21,519 nucleotides of DNA from an uncultured virus (IMG/VR IMGVR_UViG_3300033562_000715). Taxonomy: Duplodnaviria; Heunggongvirae; Uroviricota; Caudoviricetes. The stretch lies in the IMG/VR virus record IMGVR_UViG_3300033562_000715; one strand, written 5' to 3'. How positions within the stretch are numbered: the first letter of the stretch is position 1; the number at the start of each line of letters is the position of its first letter. A program made the position numbers and the translations under genes. This document shows, piece by piece, positions 2,025-21,519 of the stretch. Under the pieces are notes generated by a model. It did no database searches. It was given only the letters and a program-made list of their open reading frames with translations, and was not told the DNA's origin.

Positions 2025-3494
2025 TTGATTAGTTTAACAGATAGGGTTGTGCTTGAAAAGAGGGGTAAAGTTAAAAATCATATATTTAAGGGGGTGGACA
2101 GTGCTAAAGAGCTTGTCCACTCTTTTGACGAAGTTTTAGTATACTTTGACCCAGATGTGGATGGTTGTATAGCAGGATTATTAGTTTGTAAATATTGCAT
2201 CAAGCATAAAATCCCCTTTACATGGTACATCAATAAAGATAGGAGTCATGATTGGAACTTATCTACAGAACGGGTAAGTGGAAAGAACATTATAGCAGTT
2301 GACTTTATTATAACAGCAGAAAAAGTAATAGAACTATGTGATGCAGGGTGTAATCTAATTAGTATGGACCACCATGTAAATCGCAAAGAAATGATAGATT
2401 ATACATCAGACTATAGCACACATGGTATAGTAATCAATAATCAGTACCCTTTTGAAGACAAAGATAGTAGGTATTTAAGTGGTGCAGGAGTGGTTTATGA
2501 ATCACTAATCTATATGGATCCAGACTTTGATACCCAAGAGAACAGAGCACTAGTTGGTATAACTCTTTTATCTGATGTAAGAGATATAGAGAATGAATAT
2601 GCTCAAAATTACTTAAGTATTTTATATACACACCCTTATAAGGGTTATATAAGATATTTAATAGACAGTACAATGGGTGAGAAAGACTATGGCTTTGGTG
2701 TTCCAAGGATGGATAGAAATTATGTAGATTTTAAGTTTAGTCCAGCTATAAACGCTTGGTTAAGGTTTAATCATCAGGATGATGTTGTTGATTTCTTCTT
2801 GGGTAAAAATACCCTTGATTTATCCTACAGAGAAGAACAGAAAGCTTTAGTAAATAGTCTTATGAAAGGTATAACAGTAGTAGACTTTTCCAAACTAAGA
2901 GTATGTTATTTTTATGAAAAAGACTTTAAGGAGTATGCTGATATACTTTCCAACTTTGTTGGTTTGGTAGCAAGTAGGAACTTAAATGGAGAACAGTCCG
3001 TTATTTGTTATATGATTGGAGAAAAGAATGGTAAATCTTATATGAAGAGAGCATCCTTTAGGGGTAACAGAAACGGATTAGATTATCAAGCATCTTTAGG
3101 ATTGCTCTATACTTGTTTAGGTCATAAATCTGCTTTCGGTATTAAAGGTTTATCTCCAAAAGGTGATATATTTGCTAATTCTAATGAGTTATGTGTAAGT
3201 TTAGAAGAAGCTTTTCCTTATGAAAAGATTATCATTAGCACTTCAAACTTATCTTTCTTTATCATTAGTAAAGCTAGAAAAATAGCTGAAGAGAACTTGT
3301 ATTCTTTAAGTCAAAACAAGACCTATGTAAAGTATACAGGCAATAGCTACAAGGTTAGATTTTCTAGTCCAAGTTTTACTGAATACATTGTAGATGGGAT
3401 AACTGTTAAATGTTTTGACTCAAATATGAACCCAGAGAATAGTCTAATCACTCCAACATTGGAGAGGGGTTTTGTTCATTTTTATTTAGAGTAG
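2025..3494 (+). CDS. recJ: RecJ-like single-stranded DNA exonuclease, DHH/DHHA1 family
   Basis: Motifs DPDVDG, AVDF, MDHH, LSGAGV, LSDV, RASFRG and LGHKSAFG in RecJ order; TTG start after AGGAGG. Confidence 0.85.
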   Translation: MISLTDRVVLEKRGKVKNHIFKGVDSAKELVHSFDEVLVYFDPDVDGCIAGLLVCKYCIKHKIPFTWYINKDRSHDWNLSTERVSGKNIIAVDFIITAEKVIELCDAGCNLISMDHHVNRKEMIDYTSDYSTHGIVINNQYPFEDKDSRYLSGAGVVYESLIYMDPDFDTQENRALVGITLLSDVRDIENEYAQNYLSILYTHPYKGYIRYLIDSTMGEKDYGFGVPRMDRNYVDFKFSPAINAWLRFNHQDDVVDFFLGKNTLDLSYREEQKALVNSLMKGITVVDFSKLRVCYFYEKDFKEYADILSNFVGLVASRNLNGEQSVICYMIGEKNGKSYMKRASFRGNRNGLDYQASLGLLYTCLGHKSAFGIKGLSPKGDIFANSNELCVSLEEAFPYEKIIISTSNLSFFIISKARKIAEENLYSLSQNKTYVKYTGNSYKVRFSSPSFTEYIVDGITVKCFDSNMNPENSLITPTLERGFVHFYLE

Positions 3495-3525: not shown

Positions 3526-3679
3526 GTACTTAGGGTAAATACTTAGACTCTCTTATATTTAGAACTGTAACAACTTATTTTAGTTTTGTAAATAGTGTTT
3601 ATTTATAAGAGGTATCTAAGAATATCTGTTTTACGTTGTGTTTATGGTTGTAATTTATTTTATTAGGAGGAAAAGTTTA

Positions 3680-4858
3680 ATGGTTAACGGAAAAGCAACA
3701 TTAGTAGTAGATTTGGGTAACTCTGAAACAAGAGTAGAGACCCATTTTGGCAAGAATAGTAAGGGTTTAACTAGAAAAAGGTTATCTTTTTTAAGCAACC
3801 ATTTTGGTGAACTAGCACCACAAAAAGTGAATCTGTACACAGTGGAGAGTTCCACATATACAGAAGATAACTCAAGAATTTTCAAGTATCATGAACAGGT
3901 TTATTGTAATGGAAGCTTATGTAATGATGAATTTGGATCAACAGCCATCAGACCAACAGCTCTAGAAAAGAAGTATGAAAGCTTATTAACTGACTTATCC
4001 TTGCGTAATGCTTTAACAAGAGGGTATGAAGATATCGCTTTATTTACTAACAGTGATATTGAGTCAATAGATGTAGAATGGGAATTAGTTCTATTATTAC
4101 CACCAGACGACATTGATGTAGGTGCTAAGAACCTTGCTCAGAGAGCTAAGGCAATTAATAGCTTATCTTTCATTATGCCAAAGTTGGAAAAAGAAATAAA
4201 GATAGAAAAGGTAAATATTTATCCAGAGGGCTTTGCAGCTTTGATCGGTGTTGCCTTTGTAACAAAAGGACTGGTAAGAAAGGGTTATGAATACCTTTTA
4301 AGTCCAGAACAAAAAACTTTGATCTTAGATATCGGTGCAGGAACTACAGACTTCTTGTTGGCTAAGGGTACAAATATTGTTTCAACATCAAGATTCACTC
4401 GTGAGATTGGTGGTAACAATATACACCAGAGAGTAAGACGTCTGCTAAAAGAAGCAGGAGTGTCTTTATCAGATAATATTGTAAAAGCAGGATGTGAGGT
4501 TGGTTTTGTCATGGATGGCAGTAAGCGTTATGATATTACACAATTCATTGCAAAAGCTAAATCAGACGTTTCTAAACAACTTGTAGATGCCATTCAGGAG
4601 TTCTTTGAAGATAATATGATGCCTATCAGAAGTATTAATAACATCTTAGTTGTAGGTGGAGGAGCTGAAATCTCGGAGAACAAAGATATATCTCCAATCT
4701 CAGAATACTTAACAGCATACATGCAAAAACTATCACCATCGATCAATTTGGTTGAACTTCCAGAATTGGATTTCCCAGCTGAAGATGATGAACAGGAAGT
4801 AAAATATTCGGTTACAAGATTGCTCAACATTGTTGGTGCAGGAATCTTAGCAGCATAA
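3680..4858 (+). CDS. actin-like ATPase, ParM/StbA family
   Basis: Phosphate-1 VVDLGNSET, connect YPEGFAA, phosphate-2 ILDIGAGTTD, adenosine VVGGGA, terminal NIVG. Start reassigned to ATG 3680 (AGGAGG upstream), 392 aa. Confidence 0.9.
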   Translation: MVNGKATLVVDLGNSETRVETHFGKNSKGLTRKRLSFLSNHFGELAPQKVNLYTVESSTYTEDNSRIFKYHEQVYCNGSLCNDEFGSTAIRPTALEKKYESLLTDLSLRNALTRGYEDIALFTNSDIESIDVEWELVLLLPPDDIDVGAKNLAQRAKAINSLSFIMPKLEKEIKIEKVNIYPEGFAALIGVAFVTKGLVRKGYEYLLSPEQKTLILDIGAGTTDFLLAKGTNIVSTSRFTREIGGNNIHQRVRRLLKEAGVSLSDNIVKAGCEVGFVMDGSKRYDITQFIAKAKSDVSKQLVDAIQEFFEDNMMPIRSINNILVVGGGAEISENKDISPISEYLTAYMQKLSPSINLVELPELDFPAEDDEQEVKYSVTRLLNIVGAGILAA

Positions 4859-7585: not shown

Positions 7586-9190
7586 ATGAGGGTTAATGGT
7601 GGTAATGTAGGACCTGAGGTGCCTAGAAAGGGTACTTCAGGACCTATTAGTCTTACAGATGAATTAGAACATGTTTTGAGTCAACAAGAATCAATAAAGA
7701 AGGAAATTATTAAGGAAGAACCAGTGGAAGAGGTTTTTGAAAAGAAAGTTAAGAGAAAGCGAAAAAAAGCTCCAATTGTAGTTTTTTGCATACTCTTAAT
7801 AGTCTTAATACTATACTTGTATAGGAACTTTATTGCCTATCCACCTAGAGCATCTGTAGAACCGAACACTACAAAGGGTTATGCTTTAGAGAAATACCAG
7901 GGTATGTTAAATCAAATGGATTTCTTGGGTAAAGATACTTATATTGCTAAAGAAGTATTATATGCAAATAACAACCCTGAAAAAATACTGTTCATTAAAG
8001 AAATCTTATCCAATTTTTCATACTACTATAAACATGAAAATGTAAAGAATATATATGGAAATGACTATATTAACCCTAAGACTAAGGAAGTTGAATCTGA
8101 TGGCTTTTATGGAGCAGATATAAGTAAAGACTTTGGTGTTTCTTATGTAGATTATTCTAAGATAAAGATAGATGAAAATATGGTAAAGAATATAATGTCA
8201 GACTTAGAATTAGATCCAACTAAAGTAGACTATAGCAACCTTTTAGTAAATGCTTTTTGTAAGTATATTACAGAGGTTGATTCTCTACCAACTAAGATGG
8301 TAGAGCATAAGCCTTTATTAAAAAAGGTTAAAGGCTCTTATGTTGTAAGTAAAGAGGAAGACATTTTCTTAGATAAACTATTTTTTTCAAGTAAAGAATT
8401 TTATGATTTACTGAACAGGTTCTCAGAAGTTGCCTATAATGTATCTGAAAAGAGTGGTAGTAAGTTGGCACCAACAACAGAATGGGTAACTTGGTCAGCT
8501 CTAAGTAAGTCAGAGAGAGAAAAAGTAGAAGAACCTACAAAATACTTCTATAAGACTGCTATTAGTAACCTTTGGTGTGGTACTTATTATCTGATGGAGG
8601 AACACTCTATCATAGATGAACAGGGTAACAGAATACCTCAAGAGGTTGTACAAGAGTTGGGAGACGGTTCATTTAAGAACCCAGCAAGCTTTGAGACAGG
8701 AATACTAACAAGTGTGTTGGTAGAAAGTACAGATTTAGAGGGTAATACTACCTTTGTATCTTACCCAATAAAGGTTAAGTTAAAAGAATATGGTGTATCT
8801 CAAGACGCAATCAAGTGGTTTGAGGGTAAGGATTCTTTAAATAGAGGTGCAGATGTTTCTTCAGATATTCAATATTGTTATTACACTTTTGAAATTACTA
8901 ATATGAGTAATGTAGTCTTAAATATAAAAGATAATTCTTGTTTATGTGATGCAAATGCTAACTTAGCACCTAGAACGGGTACTATTTATGGTTTAAAGGA
9001 TACTCTTACATTAAATCCAGATGAAACAGGTTTAATTGAATCTTGGAATAGAAATACAGAATTAAATAAAAAGTTTGTAATATGGGGTGCTGATTTTAAC
9101 CGAAGGATACAGCCAGTTTGGTTTAGATTACTACAAGGTAACCTTGAGGACAGTAGTGAAGATAAGGGTGTATTTATTCGTCAGGATTAA
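7586..9190 (+). CDS. single-pass membrane protein with large extracytoplasmic region and Ig-like C-terminus
   Basis: Basic stretch KKVKRKRKK then TM IVVFCILLIVLILYLY; C-terminal YYTFEITNMS...LNPDET beta-sandwich pattern; RBS aggaggg. Confidence 0.75.
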   Translation: MRVNGGNVGPEVPRKGTSGPISLTDELEHVLSQQESIKKEIIKEEPVEEVFEKKVKRKRKKAPIVVFCILLIVLILYLYRNFIAYPPRASVEPNTTKGYALEKYQGMLNQMDFLGKDTYIAKEVLYANNNPEKILFIKEILSNFSYYYKHENVKNIYGNDYINPKTKEVESDGFYGADISKDFGVSYVDYSKIKIDENMVKNIMSDLELDPTKVDYSNLLVNAFCKYITEVDSLPTKMVEHKPLLKKVKGSYVVSKEEDIFLDKLFFSSKEFYDLLNRFSEVAYNVSEKSGSKLAPTTEWVTWSALSKSEREKVEEPTKYFYKTAISNLWCGTYYLMEEHSIIDEQGNRIPQEVVQELGDGSFKNPASFETGILTSVLVESTDLEGNTTFVSYPIKVKLKEYGVSQDAIKWFEGKDSLNRGADVSSDIQYCYYTFEITNMSNVVLNIKDNSCLCDANANLAPRTGTIYGLKDTLTLNPDETGLIESWNRNTELNKKFVIWGADFNRRIQPVWFRLLQGNLEDSSEDKGVFIRQD

Positions 9191-9217
9191 ACTGTATATT
9201 ATTTTAGAGATTGGGTG

Positions 9218-9246
9218 TTGCTAAAAACTTAGATTTGTGTTATACT
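9218..9246 (+). promoter_or_regulatory. sigma-A promoter driving a short transcript
   Basis: TTGCTA (9218-9223), 17 nt, TATACT (9241-9246) with extended TG. Confidence 0.8.
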
Positions 9247-9252
9247 TATATC

Positions 9253-9328
9253 ATAGCATAAGATACATAAGCTTTTACTCCTAAGTTAAGAAAGAGCAAC
9301 CAGTTGAGAAATTGGTTGCTCTTTTTAT
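9253..9328 (+). ncRNA. putative ~75 nt small RNA containing anti-SD CUCCU
   Basis: Bounded by the 9218 promoter and 9291 terminator; no + strand ORF with RBS; the downstream gene has its own promoter. Ends are approximate. Confidence 0.55.
9291..9328 (+). terminator. intrinsic terminator
   Basis: aaagagcaaccagtt-gaga-aattggttgctcttt followed by T-rich sequence. Confidence 0.85.
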
Positions 9329-9348
9329 TATTTAAAAGTTAGAACACA

Positions 9349-9377
9349 TTGTATGTACTATTAATATATGGTAAAAT
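9349..9377 (+). promoter_or_regulatory. sigma-A promoter for the intein-paralog/methyltransferase cluster
   Basis: TTGTAT (9349-9354), 17 nt, TAAAAT (9372-9377) with extended TG. Confidence 0.7.
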
Positions 9378-9411
9378 TGGAGTATCAAATATGAAGGGTG
9401 GTAGTAATTAT

Positions 9412-10239
9412 ATGGGTAATAGCAAATATGGTTATATGTCAAAAAATGTAGAATTTTTTAATGGTATTGAATGGAAATCATTGGCAGACTATAAAGAAGG
9501 GGATAAAGTATTACAGTATATGAAAGAAGGAACTTCATTTTTAGTAGATCCTATGGAGTTTGGTTCTGTTAAGAATGAAAAAGCTGAGATGCTTTATAAC
9601 TGGGTAGTTGATTTTTGTGGTGGCTTTACTGAGAACTATGGTTTAGTGGTAAAAAACTTTAGTACAAATACTTTAAGTTGTGTAAAAGCATCTGAACTTG
9701 AAACTTTGGCTATAACAGACAGAGATTATCTTTCAAGCCATGGTGCACTCAATTCAACTATGATGTTTGACATGGGTGAGTCTACAGATGGAGATATTTC
9801 AGAATTCAAGAAAATAGAAATCAAAAATATTGCTTATGATTATTTGGTTAGTAGGGTTAAAGTACCTGAATCCGTATTATCTTGGAAATTGGAAGAAAGA
9901 AGAGCTTTGCTTTTGGCTCTTGGGATAGACATAAAATTCCTGATGGAAAATGATGAACTTGAATCAGGTATTCACTTTTACAATGAAGAAGATGAGTTCT
10001 TAATCTGTTCATTGATTAGTTTATCTTTTATTGATGTAGATGTTGATTATGCAACTACTTCTATGAATGACGAGAGTATGTACTCTGTAACTAATAATAC
10101 CCCTTTTAGTAGTAATAATTCAATTAAACGGATGTTTGTTGAAGATCTTTATTACTTAGTTGTTCCAACTCATATGTTTGTAGCAAGAATACAAGGTAAA
10201 GTTGTAATAATGGGTGATAGCGTAGTCGAGAATATTTAA
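9412..10239 (+). CDS. free-standing intein-like (Hint domain) protein 1, catalytically degenerate
   Basis: ATG 9412 preferred (RBS aagggtgg; promoter overlaps the longer start). N- and C-terminal segments align without gaps to blocks A and F/G of the downstream MTase intein. Confidence 0.85.
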   Translation: MGNSKYGYMSKNVEFFNGIEWKSLADYKEGDKVLQYMKEGTSFLVDPMEFGSVKNEKAEMLYNWVVDFCGGFTENYGLVVKNFSTNTLSCVKASELETLAITDRDYLSSHGALNSTMMFDMGESTDGDISEFKKIEIKNIAYDYLVSRVKVPESVLSWKLEERRALLLALGIDIKFLMENDELESGIHFYNEEDEFLICSLISLSFIDVDVDYATTSMNDESMYSVTNNTPFSSNNSIKRMFVEDLYYLVVPTHMFVARIQGKVVIMGDSVVENI

Positions 10240-10350
10240 GTAAATTAAGGAAGTACTCTAGGGGGTACTCCCAATTTATTAAGGAGGATTGTGAATATGG
10301 GTTTAATGAGAAGGATTATAGGTAATAACTTACTAAGGAGGGTTGTGTGT

Positions 10351-10881
10351 ATGGATTTGAGAGGTTGTATGGAGGTTAGTGGTGACCTTAAATACTTTAA
10401 TGGTACTGAGTGGAAAGAAATTAGGAAGTATAAAGATAAGGAAGAAATACTTATCTGTAAAGAAGATGGTTCTTATGTAATGGAGTTACCAAGTGCTTAT
10501 ATTGTAAGGGATACTGAAGACCCTTTTTATATGTATAAAGATTCTAAGGGTTGTTATCCTTTAATGACACAAACGGGTACTCATGATATGATACTTGCAA
10601 AGGATAGTGATGGTAAGAAAGTATTTGTAAGGTATAAGACTGGTAGCCTTTTATCCAAAGAATCCAGCTTTTTACAATTATTAAACCTTGATTGTTGTGA
10701 ATTAGATCGGTTAGAAGATATTAAGAACTCTTTACCAGCTTATTTTACCTTAGAAAAAGACGGCTTTACAAAATGTGATTTATTAGATGGAAAATATGGT
10801 TTTTGCACTTCAAGTGGTATGGTTGTTCTTAGTTCAGCAGATTCTGTATTTGTAACAGGTTCTTATTATTTAGAAGATTAA
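10351..10881 (+). CDS. free-standing mini-intein-like (Hint domain) protein 2
   Basis: ATG 10351 has aaggaggg; alternative ATG 10297 also has an RBS. Aligns to intein block A region, block B (QTGTHD) and block F/G. Confidence 0.8.
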   Translation: MDLRGCMEVSGDLKYFNGTEWKEIRKYKDKEEILICKEDGSYVMELPSAYIVRDTEDPFYMYKDSKGCYPLMTQTGTHDMILAKDSDGKKVFVRYKTGSLLSKESSFLQLLNLDCCELDRLEDIKNSLPAYFTLEKDGFTKCDLLDGKYGFCTSSGMVVLSSADSVFVTGSYYLED

Positions 10882-10928
10882 TTTTGATTTATTGTTTGTA
10901 TGTATAAAATGGTAGTAGGAGGACTAGA

Positions 10929-12923
10929 ATGAAAAATTGGTACTGTGACAACATGAAAGATGAAGTTCCTTATAATAATATACTTGAAAGAGCTAACAAC
11001 GGTGAATTTCATGACTGGGGTTTTGAGCCTTTTGAATTTATTGAAAATGGGTATGAGGGTGTAATTGAAAGATTAAAAGCCTTTAGAGCTCCAGATTATT
11101 TGGACGAGAAAGACCCAATTAAGCAAGAAGAAATGGTAAATGAAGTATTAAAGATCTACAGAGAAGTTAATGTATTCCCGATTCAGTATTATTCTGAGAT
11201 GGGTATTGTAAATGAAATTGAGAAATGCTTAGGTTATAAGGCTAAGTTTGATGGAAATACAATCTCATGTGGTGCAGGCATAGGTACAACTCTATGTAAC
11301 TTCCTTTTTCCTAACTTATTTGACGTACCATCAAAGCATGATTTAGATAAAGTTGGTGCTGAGACATTATATGCGAAGTTCCATAATGATGAGTATCTTA
11401 AAAGAGCAATCAAGTTTTGTTTTTCATACAAAGATGGTTGTCCAACACCTACAAATGTAATGGGTGGGCTAAGATTGGTAGGTAGTGCACCTACTAACTT
11501 CAGACCAATGAATGCTAAGGCAGTATATGAGAGATTCTGTCCAAAGGGTGGGGTTATCTATGACTATTGTTGTTTTGATGACGAGACTAAGTTCTTCACT
11601 GGTAAGGAATGGAAATACATCTCTCAATATTCAGAGGGTGATAAAGTTTTACAGTATAATGAAGATGGCTCTGCTGAGTTGGTAGACCCTATTGAGTATA
11701 TTCATTACAAGAATAAAGACCCTTTTTATGAAGGCACTGGTTATGTTAGGTCTTGTCAGACGGGTAATCATGACGTTGTTTATATGTTGTACAATGAAGA
11801 CAACACTGTAGAAACCTTACACAAGATTAAACAGGAAGAACTTGTAGCTATGGATAAAGCTGGAACTTTGAAGGACTTTAAAGGTCACATACCTATTGCA
11901 TTTAGATACGATGGACCTAGAGAGCTATCAGATGAAGAGGTTCTTACACTAAGAGATGCATTGACTAATACTAAAGAGTACATGACTTTCAATGCTTTGA
12001 TTGAAAAATATAGTTACCTATACGATCTTTCTAATAGTTCTAGGATTGCCTTATTAGATGCTTTATTTAGTCAGTTTGGTGGTGAACATTTTAAGTGTAA
12101 AAGTACAGCAGTAGTTAAACTAGTAGGAGAGCTAAGTGAGTTCGCAGGATTCTTTTTAGTATGGGAGTATGATGGTGGTATGAATATTGCCACAACGTAT
12201 AAAGACTCTATAGAGGGTGGTGTTGTAACTATTAAATATTACAACCCTGAAAACAACACTTCTACCTTTAATGAAGTATACAAAGAACATAAGTATTGCT
12301 TTGTAGTTCCAAGTCATATGCTTGTTGTAAGACGTAAAGGTCATACGTATATCTCAGGAAACTGTGGATTTGGTGGTAGAATGTTAGGAGCTTTATCTTC
12401 AAAGAATAATTACAAGTATGTAGGAACTGACCCAAACACTGAAACAATGTATCATCTACACCAATTAGGGGAGCATATTGAACAAGCAACGGGTAGAGAG
12501 AATTCATTTGAACTCCATTGTTGTGGCTCTGAAGAGTTCATAGGTAAGCCTAATAGTATTGATTTTTCTTTCAGTAGTCCACCTTACTTTGACCTAGAAG
12601 TCTATAGTCAAGAAGAAACACAGTGTTTCAATAAGTTTCCAAAGTTAGAGGAATGGCTAGAAGGGTATGTACGTCAAACCATCAAAAACATTCATTATAT
12701 GTTAAAGCCAGGAAGATATTATGCAGTTAATATTGCAGATTTTAAAGTAGGTGGAGGCACAGAAATAGCATATGTAGATGAATGGATTAGAATATCCACA
12801 GAAGAGGGTATGCCATTGTTTGATACTGTGTATTTAGGTGTAACTGCTAGGGCAGGTAGTAAGGAACAGGCAGCAGGTGAATTGAAGAAGGAAAACATCC
12901 TTATTTTCAAGAAGCCAATGTAA
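10929..12923 (+). CDS. amino-DNA methyltransferase (SPPY, probably N4-cytosine) containing an intein
   Basis: After intein removal motif I reads VIYDYC|CGFGGRMLGA; motif IV FSSPPYF; later LKPGRYYAVNIAD. Spliced product 400 aa. Confidence 0.9.
   Translation: MKNWYCDNMKDEVPYNNILERANNGEFHDWGFEPFEFIENGYEGVIERLKAFRAPDYLDEKDPIKQEEMVNEVLKIYREVNVFPIQYYSEMGIVNEIEKCLGYKAKFDGNTISCGAGIGTTLCNFLFPNLFDVPSKHDLDKVGAETLYAKFHNDEYLKRAIKFCFSYKDGCPTPTNVMGGLRLVGSAPTNFRPMNAKAVYERFCPKGGVIYDYCCFDDETKFFTGKEWKYISQYSEGDKVLQYNEDGSAELVDPIEYIHYKNKDPFYEGTGYVRSCQTGNHDVVYMLYNEDNTVETLHKIKQEELVAMDKAGTLKDFKGHIPIAFRYDGPRELSDEEVLTLRDALTNTKEYMTFNALIEKYSYLYDLSNSSRIALLDALFSQFGGEHFKCKSTAVVKLVGELSEFAGFFLVWEYDGGMNIATTYKDSIEGGVVTIKYYNPENNTSTFNEVYKEHKYCFVVPSHMLVVRRKGHTYISGNCGFGGRMLGALSSKNNYKYVGTDPNTETMYHLHQLGEHIEQATGRENSFELHCCGSEEFIGKPNSIDFSFSSPPYFDLEVYSQEETQCFNKFPKLEEWLEGYVRQTIKNIHYMLKPGRYYAVNIADFKVGGGTEIAYVDEWIRISTEEGMPLFDTVYLGVTARAGSKEQAAGELKKENILIFKKPM
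11571..12362 (+). mobile_element. intein, 264 aa (C215-N478), with apparently eroded homing endonuclease region
   Basis: Starts CFDDETKFFT, block B QTGNHD, block F KYCFVVPSHMLVV, ends ISGN followed by Cys+1; removal restores the SAM-binding motif. Confidence 0.92.
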
Positions 12924-12938
12924 GTATATTAAACATAG

Positions 12939-12974
12939 AGAGTGAGATACATTAATCTGTATCTTGCTCTTTTT
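12939..12974 (+). terminator. intrinsic terminator
   Basis: agagtgagataca-ttaatc-tgtatcttgctct then tttt, just after the MTase stop. Confidence 0.8.
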
Positions 12975-13124
12975 GTATGTAGATTTATTTGTTTTGGTTG
13001 AGACTTTAGTCAATTTTAGGTCTGTATCTTGATATTATATAAATTGTATATATTTAGTGCACTGAGCGTTGAGAGTGAATGTGTGTGCTATATTTATAAT
13101 TTTATTAAACTAGGAGGAGTACAG

Positions 13125-14835: not shown

Positions 14836-17800
14836 ATGAAATTAAAGAAGTTTAAGTTTGTGATTGGATTTCTTATGTTTGCATTTATGTTTATGTTGTC
14901 TGTAGACACTCATGCAGAGGACTATGTTGCAGGGAAGGTTTATACTCTTTATCTTAATCCTAATGGTGGTACAATAGCCAGATCTTCCCTTACTTACTTT
15001 GATAATGGTAGTGGACCTTTTAGTCCAGATGTACCAGTAAGAGATGGGTATTTCTTCGAGGGTTGGTCACTATTGCCAAATGCAACAGAGGCTACACTGA
15101 CTCAGTGGGAGAGAAATCAGGTATCAAATACTTTATATGCAGTTTGGTCAGTAAACCCAAGATATTCATCTGTGAAGTATGACGTTACAGGAGGTATAAA
15201 TGCTCCTCGAGATGTAGCATATACTTATAGTGCAACAGAGAAGATTACTTTATCTACAAGTACACCATCAAAAGTAGGTTTTACTTTTTTAGGGTGGTCT
15301 ACAGATAGTACTTCAACAGTTGCAACAATACAGCCAGGAGCTACTTGGTCAAGAAGCAAAATAGGTAAAAATGTTTTATACGCAGTATGGGAGAGAATAC
15401 CAGGAACTGGTGTAATAGTTTATGATCCAGCTACAGGAGAGCAAGCACCTGACCCAATTGCATATGTACAAAGTACAACAGACGGTGTTACATTATCTAC
15501 TCAAGTTCCAGCAAAAGTAGGGTATACATTTGAGGGTTGGGCTACAGAGAGTGGTGCAGAAGACCCTACATTACAGCCAGGAGACGTATGGAAGCCAAGT
15601 TCAGATGCTGATACTACCTTATTTGCAGTATGGGAGAAAAACTCTGGTACATTTGTACTTTATTATGGTACAGATGGTGGGTTAAATACCCCAGCAGCAA
15701 AAGAGTTAACTCCAGTTGCTAGTGGTACGACAAAGTTATCTGTACTGACCCCAAAGAAATTAGGTTATAACTTCTTAGGTTGGTCTACTATTAAGGATGC
15801 AACTGTGGCATCATATCCAGTAGGAGCTACTTTATCTTTAAATCAGGATTCTGACGTTACATTGTACGCAGTTTGGTCTTTAGCAACTTATAGTGTTTTT
15901 TATAATGCTAATGGTGGTAGTGGAACCCCAGCAAGTCAATCATACCTTTATGAGCTCAATAAGTCAATAACCTTGTCTGCTTTGTACCCAACAAAGGCAG
16001 GTTATGACTTTGATCATTGGGCACCATCTACAACAAGCACGGAGATTATTTTACCAGGATCCGAGTGGAGTTGTACTAATGTAACTACTACATTACACGC
16101 AATGTGGGTAGGCAAAAAGTATACTTTCTCTTTTGATGCTAATGGTGGTGTAAGTACTAATGAACCAATTACTTATTCTTATCAACCAACAGGTACTTTT
16201 CCAGTTGTAACTGTATCCCCAACAAGAGATGGTTGTACTTTTCTTGGTTGGGCACGTACTGCAGATGCTGCAAAAGCATTAGTAGGTTCTTCTTTTAACT
16301 ATGCATATTACTCACCTGCAAAAGACGAGACTTTCTATGCAGTATGGGGTGCTGACATAACCTATGACGCTAACGGTGGAATAGGGGCACCAGCTAAACA
16401 GCCTTATACAGTAGGTAATGTATCTTTATCAAGTATAAAACCAACAAAGCCAGGTATTACTTTCTTAGGTTGGTCAGAAGATAAAAATGCAACAGAACCC
16501 ACTTACTTAAGTGGTGCTGATTTTTCTAGAAATCAAAATGCTAACGTTACATTATATGCAATATGGAATAACCAGTATAAGGTTACTTATAATGCTAATG
16601 GTGGAACAGGAGCTCCAGACACTCAGTATCAAGTAAATAGTCCAGAAGGTTCAGTTTTTGAAATACCTTTAATTACCCCAGTATGGGCAGACCACACATT
16701 CTTGGGTTGGAGACCTGTGACGGATAAGCCATACCTTGCAACTGTGCATAGGGGTGATACATTTATTGCACCTACTCTAGAGACAAATTTATATGCAGTT
16801 TGGAAACAAGATATTTATACTATGACAGGTCATAATGTTTACTTTGACCCCAATGGTTCAAACATCAGTTATTCTGCAGTACCTTTCTATGATAATGGAT
16901 CACCGATAACTTTCTATGAGTCTCTCTATGGTTCTAAATTTAATACTAGAGTTGGTTACAAGTTGTTAGGTTGGTCTACGACACCAGATTCTAAAATACC
17001 TAATATTTGGGGAATGCAAAGAAGTTTCGGTACTACTGTTGTATATGCAGTATGGGAGTTAAAACCAGGGTATTGTGCTTTAGAATATGACGCACAGGGT
17101 GGTTTAAATGCTCCATTTAATGAAGCTTATCCTTGTAGTTCAACTGTAAGTACTACTGTACCATCAACTATTCCTACAAAACAAGGTCACACATTCTTAG
17201 GTTGGTCTACAGATAAAGATTCAAATGTAGTAAATGTTAATCCAGGTTCTTCTTTATCAAGAACTACTCAGGGTGTAACCACATTGTATGCAGTTTGGAG
17301 TTTAACTCCTGATTATTATTCTATAGAATATAATGCTAATGGTGGTTGTCTTGCACCTAATACTACAGCGTATACTTATAATCAGGATAAAGATACAGCT
17401 ATATCTTCAGCTAGACCTGTTAGACTTGGTCACACATTCTTAGGTTGGTCTACAGACAGTAACTCAAGTGTAGCTGATATAAGCCCAGGGGACTTGTGGT
17501 CAAGAGACCTTAAGGAAAACACTACATTGTATGCAATATGGTCTCCAGATATATACAGTATAGTTTACAGTTTAAATGGTGGAACAGGTACTATACCAAG
17601 TACATTGTTTGCTTACTCGGATAGTGATTATATCCCCTTATCTAAAGACTATCCTACAAAATTTGGCTTTCATTGTATAGGATGGGGTAAAACTAGCACA
17701 AGTACGGATGCTATAACGGATTGGAAGGCTAATAATGTTGTAGGTAAAGCTCAAACCTCTATTGTGTATGTATACGCAATATGGGAACCTAATGAATATA

Positions 17801-19242
17801 CTATATCATTTGACCCTAACAATGGTGTAGGTGAGAATCCAAGTGTTACTTATACATATAGTCCAACAGCAAGTAGTCTTGCTGTGTATCCTGTAGTTCC
17901 AACAAGAGAGGATTATACTTTTCTTGGATGGAGTAGAACTAGCAATGCTATTACAGTTGAATTAAATGTTACCTTTTATTATCCTAAGACAACGGGTAAA
18001 GATGAGACTCTATATGCAGTATGGGGTGTTAATGTAGTCTATGATGCTAATGGTGGTATTAATCCACCAGCTAAACAGTCTTATGTAGTTTCGCCCACAG
18101 GCTCATTTAATTTATCAACCGCAGTTCCCTCAAGACCTAATTATACTTTTATTGGTTGGTCAGAAGACAAAAATGCTACTAAAGCAGATTACGTTAAAGG
18201 TTCAGCTTGGTCACGCAATCATACTTCAGACTCTACATTGTATGCAGTATGGGCACCAGTAAACTATTATGTAAATTATAATGCTAATGGTGGAATAGGT
18301 TCACCTGATACGCAAAATTATGATTACTCAGTAGAAGGCTCAATATTAATAACAGAGAATAGACCAACAAAGGCAAATTCTTTCTTTTGGGGTTGGGCAA
18401 CTACTATTAATGCAACACAAGCTACTGTACAGCCAGGAGACTCATGGTCTCAATCTAACAAGTCAACAACTTTATATGCAGTATGGAAAGTAATACCTTT
18501 GGTATACACTATATCCTTTGATGCTAATGGTGGGATAAATGCTCCAGAAACTGTGTCATATGAATATGCAGTGACTGGTTCAATCAATTTACCAACCACT
18601 AAGCCTACAAATGATGGTGCTTACTTTATAGGTTGGTCTAAAGACCCATTAGCAGAGGACACTACTATAAAGCTAGGTTCATCATGGTCTAAGAGTAGTA
18701 CATCAACAACATTATATGCAGTTTGGGGTAAAGGAAATGAAAATCTAATAAATTCTACAGGTTCTGACTATAGAGATTTATCCCTTGGTGAGGACAAGAC
18801 CCAGGGTAAAGTAACTGAATATTATTCAGATTCTTATTCTGAAAGTAGCAATTATGATTTAAATACATCCATTGCAGTATTTGTAACTAAGGGTAGTATG
18901 ATTAAGTTACAAGTACCAAAAACCTTGATATTAGGTATAACAGAAACTGAAGAAGGTACTTTAAAGTCTAAAGCAGAGGGTTCATACAAGATTGGTCTTT
19001 TAGGAGACTTAGGTGGCAAGCAGAAGATTCGTGTTAGCTTTCCAGAGAGAGTGACCTTAGTAAATGGAACTAAATCTATTGATGCATCTATTTCAGTAGT
19101 TAAATCAGACTGGCTTTGGGCAGATGTAAACCCAGAGACGTATACTTATGTTAACTCAACTATACGCTTAAGTGGTTTAACAGCAGGTTCTTATAAGGGT
19201 GTTTTCAATATTAACTTTGTTGTAAGCATCGATAACTTATAA
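14836..19242 (+). CDS. large secreted InlB B-repeat (Listeria-Bacteroides repeat) protein with C-terminal copy of the small subunit domain
   Basis: Signal peptide ending THA; 16 repeats of Y-x-NGG...P...FxGW...TLYAVW; last 166 aa paralogous to 14018-14593. Confidence 0.9.
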   Translation: MKLKKFKFVIGFLMFAFMFMLSVDTHAEDYVAGKVYTLYLNPNGGTIARSSLTYFDNGSGPFSPDVPVRDGYFFEGWSLLPNATEATLTQWERNQVSNTLYAVWSVNPRYSSVKYDVTGGINAPRDVAYTYSATEKITLSTSTPSKVGFTFLGWSTDSTSTVATIQPGATWSRSKIGKNVLYAVWERIPGTGVIVYDPATGEQAPDPIAYVQSTTDGVTLSTQVPAKVGYTFEGWATESGAEDPTLQPGDVWKPSSDADTTLFAVWEKNSGTFVLYYGTDGGLNTPAAKELTPVASGTTKLSVLTPKKLGYNFLGWSTIKDATVASYPVGATLSLNQDSDVTLYAVWSLATYSVFYNANGGSGTPASQSYLYELNKSITLSALYPTKAGYDFDHWAPSTTSTEIILPGSEWSCTNVTTTLHAMWVGKKYTFSFDANGGVSTNEPITYSYQPTGTFPVVTVSPTRDGCTFLGWARTADAAKALVGSSFNYAYYSPAKDETFYAVWGADITYDANGGIGAPAKQPYTVGNVSLSSIKPTKPGITFLGWSEDKNATEPTYLSGADFSRNQNANVTLYAIWNNQYKVTYNANGGTGAPDTQYQVNSPEGSVFEIPLITPVWADHTFLGWRPVTDKPYLATVHRGDTFIAPTLETNLYAVWKQDIYTMTGHNVYFDPNGSNISYSAVPFYDNGSPITFYESLYGSKFNTRVGYKLLGWSTTPDSKIPNIWGMQRSFGTTVVYAVWELKPGYCALEYDAQGGLNAPFNEAYPCSSTVSTTVPSTIPTKQGHTFLGWSTDKDSNVVNVNPGSSLSRTTQGVTTLYAVWSLTPDYYSIEYNANGGCLAPNTTAYTYNQDKDTAISSARPVRLGHTFLGWSTDSNSSVADISPGDLWSRDLKENTTLYAIWSPDIYSIVYSLNGGTGTIPSTLFAYSDSDYIPLSKDYPTKFGFHCIGWGKTSTSTDAITDWKANNVVGKAQTSIVYVYAIWEPNEYTISFDPNNGVGENPSVTYTYSPTASSLAVYPVVPTREDYTFLGWSRTSNAITVELNVTFYYPKTTGKDETLYAVWGVNVVYDANGGINPPAKQSYVVSPTGSFNLSTAVPSRPNYTFIGWSEDKNATKADYVKGSAWSRNHTSDSTLYAVWAPVNYYVNYNANGGIGSPDTQNYDYSVEGSILITENRPTKANSFFWGWATTINATQATVQPGDSWSQSNKSTTLYAVWKVIPLVYTISFDANGGINAPETVSYEYAVTGSINLPTTKPTNDGAYFIGWSKDPLAEDTTIKLGSSWSKSSTSTTLYAVWGKGNENLINSTGSDYRDLSLGEDKTQGKVTEYYSDSYSESSNYDLNTSIAVFVTKGSMIKLQVPKTLILGITETEEGTLKSKAEGSYKIGLLGDLGGKQKIRVSFPERVTLVNGTKSIDASISVVKSDWLWADVNPETYTYVNSTIRLSGLTAGSYKGVFNINFVVSIDNL

Positions 19243-19495: not shown

Positions 19496-21519
19496 ATGTT
19501 AATAAAATTTAAAAGGGGTGGTCAGTGGTTTATAAACGTTTGCAAACCTATAATACTTAGTCTATGTTTAGCCATTTCACCTTTAAGCGTTAGTGCAACA
19601 GCTACTACTTATAAACTTATTTATAATGGAAATGGTGGTTCGGGTGCACCTGTGGTTCAGTCTTTTTCTCCTGATACGGGTGATATTCAGATAAGCAGAA
19701 CTGCTCCAACCCTAACGAATTATGTATTTTTAGGGTGGTCTAGAACAACGACTGGTACTCCAGACATACAGCCTTTGTCAAAGATAACAACAAATGGTGT
19801 ATCAGCAAATATAACTTTGTATGCAAAATGGGGTAATCCCTCTACTTCAAGGTATGTTAGTTATGTTGGTTCTACTCCCACGGAAGTAAAAAATGTGTCT
19901 AACCTACCTGTAGTTCACTATTTCACTTACAGTACTTCTAGTACAATAGTTTTATCTGAAGTTGTACCAATAAGAAAGTACCATACTTTTCTTGGGTGGT
20001 CTACTGTAAGGAGTTCTAATACTGTTGATTATATGCCAGGAGATGCTTATTCTTGTTCACTAGCTTCTGCTCAATTATTTCCAGTATGGTCTTATAATGA
20101 AGGAAGTATTCCAAGTGTGTATTTTGACAAGTTATCTCAACCTGCAGTGGGTATTCCAGATACCCTTTTATTGGATTCAGATAGTAGTTATTTTATTCCA
20201 GAAACTATCCCAGTACTTCAAGGTGCCACCTTTACAGGCTGGAGTCTAACTGCTCAACCAGCTTTAACTTATGTAGATTATGCAGTAATTATGTACCAAC
20301 CAGGGGCACCCTTAGAGAAACTACATGACGACCTTACTATTTACCCTCATTTTATACCATCTACATTTCCAAAGATAAGCGTAACTTATGCTTTAAATGG
20401 TGGTACAGCTGGTCCAGTAGTACAGTGGGCAAGAACCAAATATCTAGGTGGGGATGGGACATATTTTTACTCAGATATTCTCATTTCATCAAAGGTGCCA
20501 AAGAAGGAGGGTTTTAAGTTTTTAGGTTGGTCTAGGTCTTTAAATGGACCAATGGTACTGTTAGCAGGTGCTTTAACAAACTTTAAACCCCAAACAAGTT
20601 TTACTTTATACGCAGTATGGCAAGCTTTACCAGTAGAAACTCCGCATACTCTTTCATTTGATGCTAATGGTGGTTTAAATCCACCGTCAAGTATTCCTTA
20701 TACGTTTAATACTAATATACAAGGAAGCCTTTATTTACCAACAGAGATTCCTACGTTAGAGGGTAAAGATTTTGTTGGATGGTCTACTGTACAAGGCTCT
20801 AAAACGGCTCAGTATTTAGCAGGCTCGTCTTGGTTGTTAGTAGATGTAGATACAACACTGTATGCAGTATGGGAAGACAAGCCAATAATACGAACAATAA
20901 CTTATGACTCTAACGGTGGTAGTACTTGTCCAGTACCTTTATCTTATGCAGTAAAACCGACAGGTACTGTGGCATTAACTGCTGAAAAGCCGATAAAAGA
21001 TGGTTTTGAGTTCTTGGGTTGGTCTATTACACAGACATCTAGTACTGCAGAGTATGCATCAGGGTATGCATGGTCATTAAGCAACAACTATGACAGCACT
21101 CTGTATGCTATTTGGAGGGTTATCCCCACTTATACTATAACATATGATGCAAATGGTGGTATTGATTGTCCTGACCCACAGTCCTATTTATATAGTGCGA
21201 CGGGTACTATTACTTTATCAACAGTTATACCAACAAGAGATGGTTACACTTTTCAAGGTTGGTCTACATCTAGTAATGGTTCAGGAGGTACTACAGCAGC
21301 AGGTGGTATTTGGTCATGTAGCAACACTAGTAGAACTCTATATGCAATATGGAAGTTGATTCCTATTACATATACTATAACATATGACGCAAATGGTGGT
21401 ATAAATGGTCCAGCAAGTCAATCTTATTTATATAGTGAAACGGGTACAACTATTATATCAACTGTTATACCAACAAGAGAAGGGTATGCTTTTCAGGGGT
21501 GGCACTCTCCCAATGATGA
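19496..21519 (+). CDS. second secreted InlB B-repeat protein (partial, runs off the window)
   Basis: Absent from the ORF track (no stop in window). ATG 19496 after ggaggg; MLIKFKRGG...LSVSA signal, then 7 complete and 1 partial B-repeats in one frame to GYAFQGWHSPND. Confidence 0.9.
   Translation, partial: MLIKFKRGGQWFINVCKPIILSLCLAISPLSVSATATTYKLIYNGNGGSGAPVVQSFSPDTGDIQISRTAPTLTNYVFLGWSRTTTGTPDIQPLSKITTNGVSANITLYAKWGNPSTSRYVSYVGSTPTEVKNVSNLPVVHYFTYSTSSTIVLSEVVPIRKYHTFLGWSTVRSSNTVDYMPGDAYSCSLASAQLFPVWSYNEGSIPSVYFDKLSQPAVGIPDTLLLDSDSSYFIPETIPVLQGATFTGWSLTAQPALTYVDYAVIMYQPGAPLEKLHDDLTIYPHFIPSTFPKISVTYALNGGTAGPVVQWARTKYLGGDGTYFYSDILISSKVPKKEGFKFLGWSRSLNGPMVLLAGALTNFKPQTSFTLYAVWQALPVETPHTLSFDANGGLNPPSSIPYTFNTNIQGSLYLPTEIPTLEGKDFVGWSTVQGSKTAQYLAGSSWLLVDVDTTLYAVWEDKPIIRTITYDSNGGSTCPVPLSYAVKPTGTVALTAEKPIKDGFEFLGWSITQTSSTAEYASGYAWSLSNNYDSTLYAIWRVIPTYTITYDANGGIDCPDPQSYLYSATGTITLSTVIPTRDGYTFQGWSTSSNGSGGTTAAGGIWSCSNTSRTLYAIWKLIPITYTITYDANGGINGPASQSYLYSETGTTIISTVIPTREGYAFQGWHSPND
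21131..21502 (+). repeat. 240 bp-period tandem duplication of B-repeat units
   Basis: tatactataacatatga(t/c)gcaaatggtggtat at 21131 and 21371, with matching downstream tatttatatagtg and gttataccaacaagaga. Confidence 0.85.

Follow-up and report, generated by a model that had tools for sequence, protein, structure and literature searches.

Two extein-less, probably splicing-dead intein relatives encoded upstream of an intein-bearing DNA methyltransferase in an uncultured virus

The stretch of DNA analyzed here (the window; 32-36% GC), 21,519 nucleotides (nt) of the uncultured Caudoviricetes record IMGVR_UViG_3300033562_000715, contains three consecutive plus-strand open reading frames (ORFs) that code for two small proteins, A and B, and for a DNA methyltransferase (MTase) interrupted by an intein (Table 1). 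A and B are very probably extein-less relatives of that intein that have lost its catalytic residues and have been kept as genes of their own. What is particular to the locus is that two tandem paralogs lie directly upstream of a gene with a related intein, in an MTase family that has intein-free, one-intein, and two-intein alleles. We consider it reasonably likely that, as a whole, these are independent intein-derived genes that lost their exteins by duplication and now code for dead Hint-fold proteins under selection.

In BLASTP comparisons, the alignment of A with the MTase spans the whole insert (MTase residues 220-479), with 267 columns at 27% identity (E value, 4e-14), and that of B has 70 columns at 39%, which correspond to the first 70 residues of the insert (4e-11); A and B match each other at 29% over 42 columns (5e-6). 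The gapless identities counted by hand in the original prediction, which had been made from the letters of the DNA, were identical when recomputed (21/43 and 11/24 for A, 20/53 and 7/24 for B), and its description of both ORFs as almost wholly intein-like, with flanks of about 5-7 amino acids (aa), fits the residues that we measured on either side of the intein-like domain (7 and 6 in A, 7 and 5 in B). Pfam and NCBIfam returned no relevant match for A, B, or the MTase, and PADLOC returned nothing for A, B, or the stand-alone copy found at a related locus (L025, described below). The sequence blocks that A and B have in common with canonical class-1 inteins of phage and mobile-element genes, including the MTase inteins at two sites (a and b), are an N-terminal ...TEFFNGxEWKxIxxY..GDKVLQY... 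and a C-terminal KYCFVVPSHMLVLRR..., and the Hint fold is also common to both; A has, in addition, an insert at the same position as these inteins. Unlike the canonical forms, A and B lack exteins, Cys1, and the terminal Asn, and their evolution is faster.

The MTase ORF (10929-12923) codes for 664 aa, and residues 215-478 (nt 11571-12362; 264 residues) form an insert with the borders ...GGVIYDYC/CFDDETKFF...YISGN/CGFGGRMLG (slashes mark the junctions), that is, with Cys first, Gly-Asn last, and a +1 Cys. This site-b insert has all the expected residues (Cys1, TGNH, the block F Cys, the terminal GN, and the +1 Cys). At the same position, the intein-less ortholog of the L003 contig reads ...GGVIFDSSCGFGGR..., and intein-less orthologs read ...D(S/Y/P)(S/C)CGFGGR.... 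Because the L003 ortholog has no insert there, we are dealing with a genuine in-frame insertion in motif I, and, judged from its sequence, the insert is a true intein. The C-extein matches phrog_498 ("DNA methyltransferase"; E value, 1.7e-12) and PADLOC MTase_II (2e-5 to 2.5e-8). Given these matches and the presence of CGFGGR and SPPY, the host gene can be called a divergent N6/N4-type DNA methyltransferase, with the caveat that the match of an intein-less ortholog to PF01555 is weak and below the cutoff (18.9 versus 26.7 bits); the window MTase protein had no sequence relative in the PDB either.

We compared this gene with 31 orthologs, one from L003 (a viral contig of 140 kb, an IMG/VR provirus) and 30 from metagenomic loci (L004-L033; contigs of up to 242 kb), with extein identities to the window of 44-85%. 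Among the resulting 32 alleles, 10 have an intein at site b only, 3 at site a only, and 2 at both sites (L025 and L032), while 17 have none; site a (...GNTVS/C...GN/CGAGVGT) is empty in the window. Both sites immediately precede a Cys-Gly-x-Gly motif (S/CGAGVGT and C/CGFGGR), an observation made on the window, the two-intein genes (L025:6001-8778 and L032:5572-8667), and L026, L027, and L031. The same intein family is present in RecD2-like helicases, primase-helicases, KaiC/RecA-like ATPases, and a PhoH-like protein of phages. Its N-terminal block (...TEFFNGxEWKxIxxYxxGDKVLQYNxDG...) is unusual, and besides Cys1 there is a Cys at position 4 of block F. No Hint or intein domain was detected by Pfam or NCBIfam in any embedded or stand-alone member scanned; the family that these profiles missed here occupies two sites of one MTase and many replication genes.

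A and B were modeled with AlphaFold2 using family alignments, and what follows on their fold refers to these predictions and not to experimental structures. Both models are confident: that of A has a predicted local distance difference test (pLDDT) score of 80.8 and a predicted template modeling (pTM) score of 0.82, and that of B has values of 72.7 and 0.72, with a weak central stretch. The original prediction had proposed to look for a Hint fold with AlphaFold and Foldseek, and this fold is indeed predicted for both proteins. The best PDB matches of A in Foldseek are inteins associated with homing endonucleases, namely, PhoVMA (7qst; E value, 6e-6), TliVMA, and PI-SceI. With 7qst, 224 residues of A are aligned (VIA-align; Z, 15.3; root mean square deviation, 3.4), compared with only 130-148 residues with mini-inteins, which indicates that part of the insert of A superposes on the endonuclease domain. 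This insert, of about 100 residues, is found at the homing-endonuclease position, has approximately half the size of a two-domain LAGLIDADG nuclease with little predicted beta-sheet, and contains a LAGLIDADG-like helix (...LLLALGID..., from residue 162); the model suggests that it may be a shrunken remnant of a homing endonuclease insert. B has no such insert in its model, and its best structural matches are mini-inteins and the Hedgehog Hog domain (TMq, 0.60-0.66). Leads from the ESM Atlas with scores of 0.85-0.90 were viral clusters of 300-430 aa with LAGLIDADG, Hom_end, or Hint families.

All 17 embedded MTase inteins have C1, the block B T..H, the block F Cys, and the terminal N, with a +1 Cys in each MTase. 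In A, Tyr takes the place of both Cys1 and the block F Cys, block B reads T..Y (the His is gone), and Asp, followed by Ser, stands where the embedded inteins have the terminal Asn. In B, position 1 is Glu, the C-terminal junction reads Ser and then Tyr, and the block B TxxH is kept (TGTH). Class-1 splicing, the established mechanism, includes a first acyl shift and the cyclization of Asn; because Cys1 and the terminal Asn have been lost, A and B should be incapable of either step, and, from their residues, they cannot splice. Of the hallmarks of an intein, both keep the predicted Hint fold, have neither flanking exteins nor a position-1 nucleophile, and lack the C-terminal Asn followed by Cys, Ser, or Thr (Asp/Ser in A, Ser/Tyr in B). 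The same losses are general among the stand-alone forms (n = 12), none of which has Cys or Thr at position 1 (Ser in one) or the terminal Asn; six have Asp in its place, a single-base change. This recurrent replacement of Asn by Asp suggests that the pocket is preserved while cyclization is abolished.

A and B are real genes under purifying selection and not relics, as four lines of evidence agree on this even if the counts are small. First, when read in frame, A scores 0.186 and B 0.232 in codon log-likelihood per codon, compared with 0.116-0.334 for 13 other coding segments (11 other genes plus the two MTase exteins) and -0.34 to -0.64 out of frame, and both ORFs show a GC1>GC2>GC3 pattern equal to that of the neighboring genes. 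Second, when neutral drift of the intein DNA was simulated at the base composition of the window, none of 400 frames was open at 60%, 45%, 35%, or 27% identity. Third, a near-identical variant (98.5%; a 33-kb contig from a different study) spans positions 9300-12950 with 56 substitutions and two 1-base insertions, both of them in the A-B spacer and the only indels across the four variant runs compared. The substitutions listed are 40 of the 56 and reach position 11393, and we took them as complete to that point. A has 7 synonymous and 8 nonsynonymous changes, a ratio of nonsynonymous to synonymous rates (dN/dS) of about 0.27 (binomial P = 0.016), and B has 3 and 2, a ratio of about 0.16 (P = 0.002 for both genes jointly), while the MTase N-extein has, among the substitutions listed, 10 and 1 (dN/dS, 0.02). 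If A starts at 9391, the changes at 9396 and 9399 are also synonymous. Fourth, a homolog of B (P0164; 182 aa) stands alone in the same way, with 43% identity and the same start and end positions. The dN/dS comparison had been put forward as a check in the original prediction, whose idea of domesticated inteins kept as independent proteins is supported by these ratios and by the predicted Hint fold, the codon statistics, the drift simulation, and P0164. The term "domesticated intein" has reportedly been used for Candida inteins and a RadA intein.

Regarding their origin, the best BLASTP partner of every stand-alone form is an MTase intein and never another stand-alone form (25-33% identity at full length, up to 53% over short stretches). 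In a quick maximum-likelihood tree, the MTase-intein group includes B, the L025 copy, P0009, and P0016 (Shimodaira-Hasegawa-like approximate likelihood ratio test, 85), and the remaining stand-alone forms could not be placed. The terminal branches of the stand-alone forms measure 1.7-3.4 changes per site, compared with a median of 1.07, and A and B evolve two to three times faster than embedded inteins. Some stand-alone forms seem to keep traces of the N-extein, since P0010 has D-F-C in register with YDFC/C, and P0086 and P0009 begin with M-I-Y-S, compared with I-Y-D-F in the extein. From such short traces, the most likely origin of A, B, and the other stand-alone genes would be a site-b intein-bearing MTase allele that was partially duplicated (or deleted), with the exteins stripped off and fast divergence afterwards. 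Because several stand-alone forms keep these traces, a local origin would explain why A and B adjoin the MTase. In a blastn comparison of positions 8900-13100 with the related loci, the spacers contained no duplicated MTase fragments, and A and B were not flanked by any definable insertion borders.

Synteny of the MTase with the gene that precedes A (7586-9190; 534 aa) is conserved in 25 of the 31 related loci. The interval between these two genes (9190-10929 in the window) varies from about 0.2 to 5.6 kb, with different unannotated genes in different elements. When every ORF of 50 aa or more in the 31 loci was searched with a profile, a single Hint-like ORF appeared outside the MTase genes (L025:5175-5933; 253 aa), located directly upstream of a two-intein MTase and preceded by a Shine-Dalgarno-like sequence, with its ATG exactly at the Cys1 position and its C terminus reading ...FISGGY-stop. 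The conserved synteny that the original prediction had suggested looking for is thus weak, with a stand-alone copy in 1 of the 31 loci, and this rarity indicates that A and B are dispensable accessories; they would be optional genes of a large mobile element.

Farther afield, an exhaustive phmmer search with A against 1.84 billion representatives gave 132 matches, most of them embedded in proteins of 600-1200 aa. Among 19 short matches inspected, nine were judged from their protein sequences to be complete stand-alone forms (P0009, P0010, P0016, P0075, P0078, P0086, P0101, P0117, and P0119), and ten were set aside as fragments or parts of embedded inteins. For some of the nine, the contig of origin measures 52-217 kb. 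In database clusters of 3-5 members, the length is the same throughout for P0101, P0117, and P0119, two of three members of the P0086 cluster have 316 aa, and the P0078 cluster has two of four members at 311 aa, plus one of 320 aa and a 57-aa fragment. A search of viral contigs with patterns of the canonical blocks, which favor canonical inteins, recovered 62 loci, all embedded, and searches of the viral contigs with A alone or P0009 gave no relatives. In genome contigs, a search with the MTase alignment gave no match, and the intein-block pattern gave one embedded RecD2-helicase intein in a Peptococcaceae metagenome-assembled genome. With blastn, there was no match in plasmids, and phages gave only short extein or intein matches.

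Several points weigh against the explanation that we prefer. The dN/dS estimates rest on 15 substitutions in A and 5 in B, from the 40 of 56 listed; the stand-alone copies at related loci are limited to the window and 1 of 31 loci, and the nine database forms were judged on protein sequence alone; the tree is a quick one in which the long stand-alone branches are poorly placed; and chance could account for the N-extein traces, which span only 3-4 residues. Finally, A and B are acidic (isoelectric points of 4.49 and 4.72, with an excess of acidic over basic residues of 20 and 9, respectively), which argues against DNA recognition, to our knowledge the only established role of dead inteins.

With these reservations, independent intein-derived genes remain the explanation that we favor. 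A and B would be stable, catalytically dead Hint-fold proteins, A with a shrunken endonuclease remnant, that act as noncatalytic binding proteins exapted from an intein rather than as enzymes or nucleases. Any particular function that we could assign to them is doubtful. Our best guess, considering the hypervariable accessory slot, the acidic isoelectric points, and the fast evolution, is a job in the conflict between mobile elements or in the handling of intein-bearing proteins. Inteins are usually treated as pure parasites confined to essential host proteins, while the intein-derived genes described here persist under selection although they have neither a host protein nor any splicing or evident nuclease chemistry, which makes it probable that a molecular parasite has been put to another use. 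As A and B adjoin a gene that still bears the parent intein, the three genes form a cassette for direct tests of a new use of the Hint fold.

One alternative, put forward as a possibility in the original prediction, has A and B binding to the MTase precursor or to its intein, through domain swapping or as decoys or chaperones, and tuning its splicing, which would give posttranslational control of DNA methylation. This would fit with their location in a terminator-bounded unit with the intein-bearing MTase, with the presence of intein-bearing MTases at both loci that have stand-alone copies (the window and L025), with the homology of A and B to the MTase intein, including an insert common to A and that intein, and with the conservation of the Hint blocks despite the catalytic loss. 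We nevertheless consider it unlikely, because thirteen other intein-bearing alleles have no stand-alone gene, the association (2 of 15 intein-bearing versus 0 of 17 intein-less alleles) is not significant by estimate rather than computation, and adjacency is accounted for by local duplication. Besides, cis-splicing is intramolecular and normally needs no partner. Just as unlikely is the broader proposal that dead extein-less inteins are a recurrent accessory class in large phage-like elements, acting in trans on their own MTase precursor or on the intein-interrupted replication proteins of rivals to block or gate splicing; if true, it would make protein splicing a target of regulation or of warfare between elements.

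A second alternative takes yeast as its model. HO and WHO are extein-less, degenerate intein-derived proteins encoded by their own genes, and WHO genes form tandem clusters beside their target, FBA1, with paralogs 24-55% identical (bioRxiv 10.1101/2020.01.20.913210). The idea in the original prediction that inteins normally occur only inside host proteins was therefore too strong, also because 3 of the best 50 matches to the model of A in a viral structure library are proteins of 203-293 residues, so that intein-sized stand-alone Hint proteins exist in annotated viral proteomes. As in the yeast case, A and B are genes of their own without exteins and tandem divergent paralogs beside a conserved gene, and they can be seen as a bacterial or phage counterpart. 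The differences are that HO and WHO have a working LAGLIDADG nuclease, a C-terminal zinc finger, and no motif G, whereas A and B have no zinc finger and keep the motif G region with its Asn lost, B has no insert, and A has only a remnant; moreover, A and B are encoded in a bacterial mobile element, next to a gene that still bears the parent intein.

By analogy, A could be a stand-alone intein-derived homing endonuclease that cuts MTase alleles lacking it and is copied in beside its target, building up a tandem array as a selfish element. Two paralogs, 29% identical, do adjoin the MTase, the slot is hypervariable (0.2 to 5.6 kb), as at homing hot spots, and the insert of A aligns in part with the endonuclease domain of VMA inteins and keeps the LAGLIDADG-like helix. 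Such an element is, however, quite unlikely, as the insert of A reaches only about half the length of a two-domain LAGLIDADG nuclease, with little beta-sheet predicted for DNA contact, and B has no insert. Neither protein has a zinc finger or other DNA-binding extension, both ending 5-6 residues past the Hint domain, and both have an acidic excess. Of the duplicated target fragments typical of HO and WHO there is no MTase DNA in the A and B spacers, only the 3-4-residue N-extein-like traces in some stand-alone forms, and no out-of-frame or antisense endonuclease ORFs are present.

That A and B are nonfunctional leftovers, stranded by a rearrangement and slowly decaying, is very unlikely and is the reading that the selection data disfavor. 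Their rarity in relatives, very long branches, loss of all catalytic residues, and degenerate insert could be understood in this way, but neutral drift left no frame open, the codon statistics match those of the host element, the variant shows an excess of synonymous changes and has its indels confined to the spacer, the ribosome-binding sites are kept, and a B homolog of the same architecture persists at 43% identity. The possibility that A keeps one partial reaction, cleavage at its C-terminal Asp-Ser that would free the hexapeptide SVVENI or activate the protein, is highly improbable: A ends in ...IMGD/S, Asp is found there in half of the stand-alone forms, splicing still occurs in some natural inteins that end in Asp or Gln, and the junction might permit some chemistry, but A has lost the block B His and the block F Cys, its Asp follows a Gly rather than a His, and the tails beyond the junction are not conserved among the stand-alone forms.

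A and B also differ from other known systems. Among phages, free-standing homing endonuclease genes of the LAGLIDADG or HNH kind (T4 seg/mob type) are likewise optional occupants of variable intergenic slots, with conserved genes of related mobile genomes on either side, but these enzymes have no Hint domain and are active nucleases, while A and B have no evident nuclease motif. A Hint fold outside the classical intein context is also found in bacterial intein-like (BIL) domains, one of which (PDB 2lwy) was among the structural matches here; they are fused within larger variable proteins and keep cleavage nucleophiles, whereas A and B stand alone without them. In the portion of an actinobacteriophage intein survey that we consulted, "free-standing" is applied to endonucleases only (10.1101/2025.01.02.630785), and our literature term searches found no description of prokaryotic or phage extein-less dead intein genes.

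The layout of the locus is summarized in Table 1. A has candidate starts at 9349, 9391, and 9412, and the database gene call (P0001; 282 aa) corresponds to 9391. Candidate starts of B are 10291, 10297, and 10351; the database call (P0163; 194 aa) uses 10297, and P0164 begins at the equivalent of 10351. A Shine-Dalgarno-like sequence precedes each of A, B, and the MTase. Both ORFs lie where the original prediction had placed them, with the intact frames and ribosome-binding sites that it had reported. It had also located the three genes between one promoter and one terminator. The flanking terminators are there, and a terminator scan found no plus-strand terminator-like hairpin between them (9289-9326 and 12937-12972). 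The single promoter was not confirmed, given that the 20 promoter-like sites are not in excess of those in shuffled sequences (16.9 ± 4.4) and one of them (10564-10592) lies within B. A and B appear to be cotranscribed with the MTase between two terminators. An Rfam scan of the window gave no matches, and the inverted repeat in the A-B spacer (10249-10272) may be a processing or attenuation hairpin.

Table 1. Features in and around the A-B-MTase unit (positions in nt from the first letter of the window)
Feature	Position	Strand	Remarks
Terminator-like hairpin	9289..9326	+	17-pair stem, then T run; ends upstream gene (7586-9190); left edge of A-B-MTase unit
ORF A, putative stand-alone splicing-dead intein paralog	9391..10239	+	275 aa from 9412, 282 aa from 9391
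Inverted repeat, A-B spacer	10249..10272		Both variant indels in spacer, after 10248 and after 10261
ORF B, putative stand-alone splicing-dead mini-intein	10351..10881	+	176 aa; predicted Hint fold only; alternative starts 10291, 10297
MTase N-extein	10929..11570	+	214 aa; C-terminal end ...GGVIYDYC
Site-b intein of MTase	11571..12362	+	264 aa, within S-adenosylmethionine-binding motif I
MTase C-extein	12363..12923	+	186 aa; CGFGGR (motif I), SPPY (motif IV)
Terminator-like hairpin	12937..12972	+	Right edge of A-B-MTase unit

Other parts of the window code for a ParM/Alp7A-like actin (partition protein; 3638-4858), a RecJ-like DHH exonuclease (2025-3494), and two very large Listeria-Bacteroides repeat proteins (14836-19242 and 19496-21517), the first of which has 14 matched repeats in 1468 aa. 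The database copies of A and B are located on a 145.5-kb contig, which, together with this gene content, fits a large phage-plasmid-like or provirus-like element of a low-GC Firmicute.

The slot between the upstream gene and the MTase is filled differently in the related loci. Of 20 slot ORFs scanned with Pfam, 18 had no match, one is a Fic-domain protein (L008:4722-5888), and one gave a subthreshold match to Glyco_transf_7C. A pair of proteins of about 340 and 500 aa recurs in the slots of L004, L007, L026, and L027, and slot ORFs of L025, L031, and L032 end in a common C-terminal motif. In L028 (6258-6799) and L033 (6390-7000), the MTase matches are divided between overlapping ORFs in different frames, and the gene looks broken. 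At L038:3605-5797, an embedded intein of the same family is interrupted, with its halves in separate ORFs (296 and 386 aa), and may be a decaying or a split intein.

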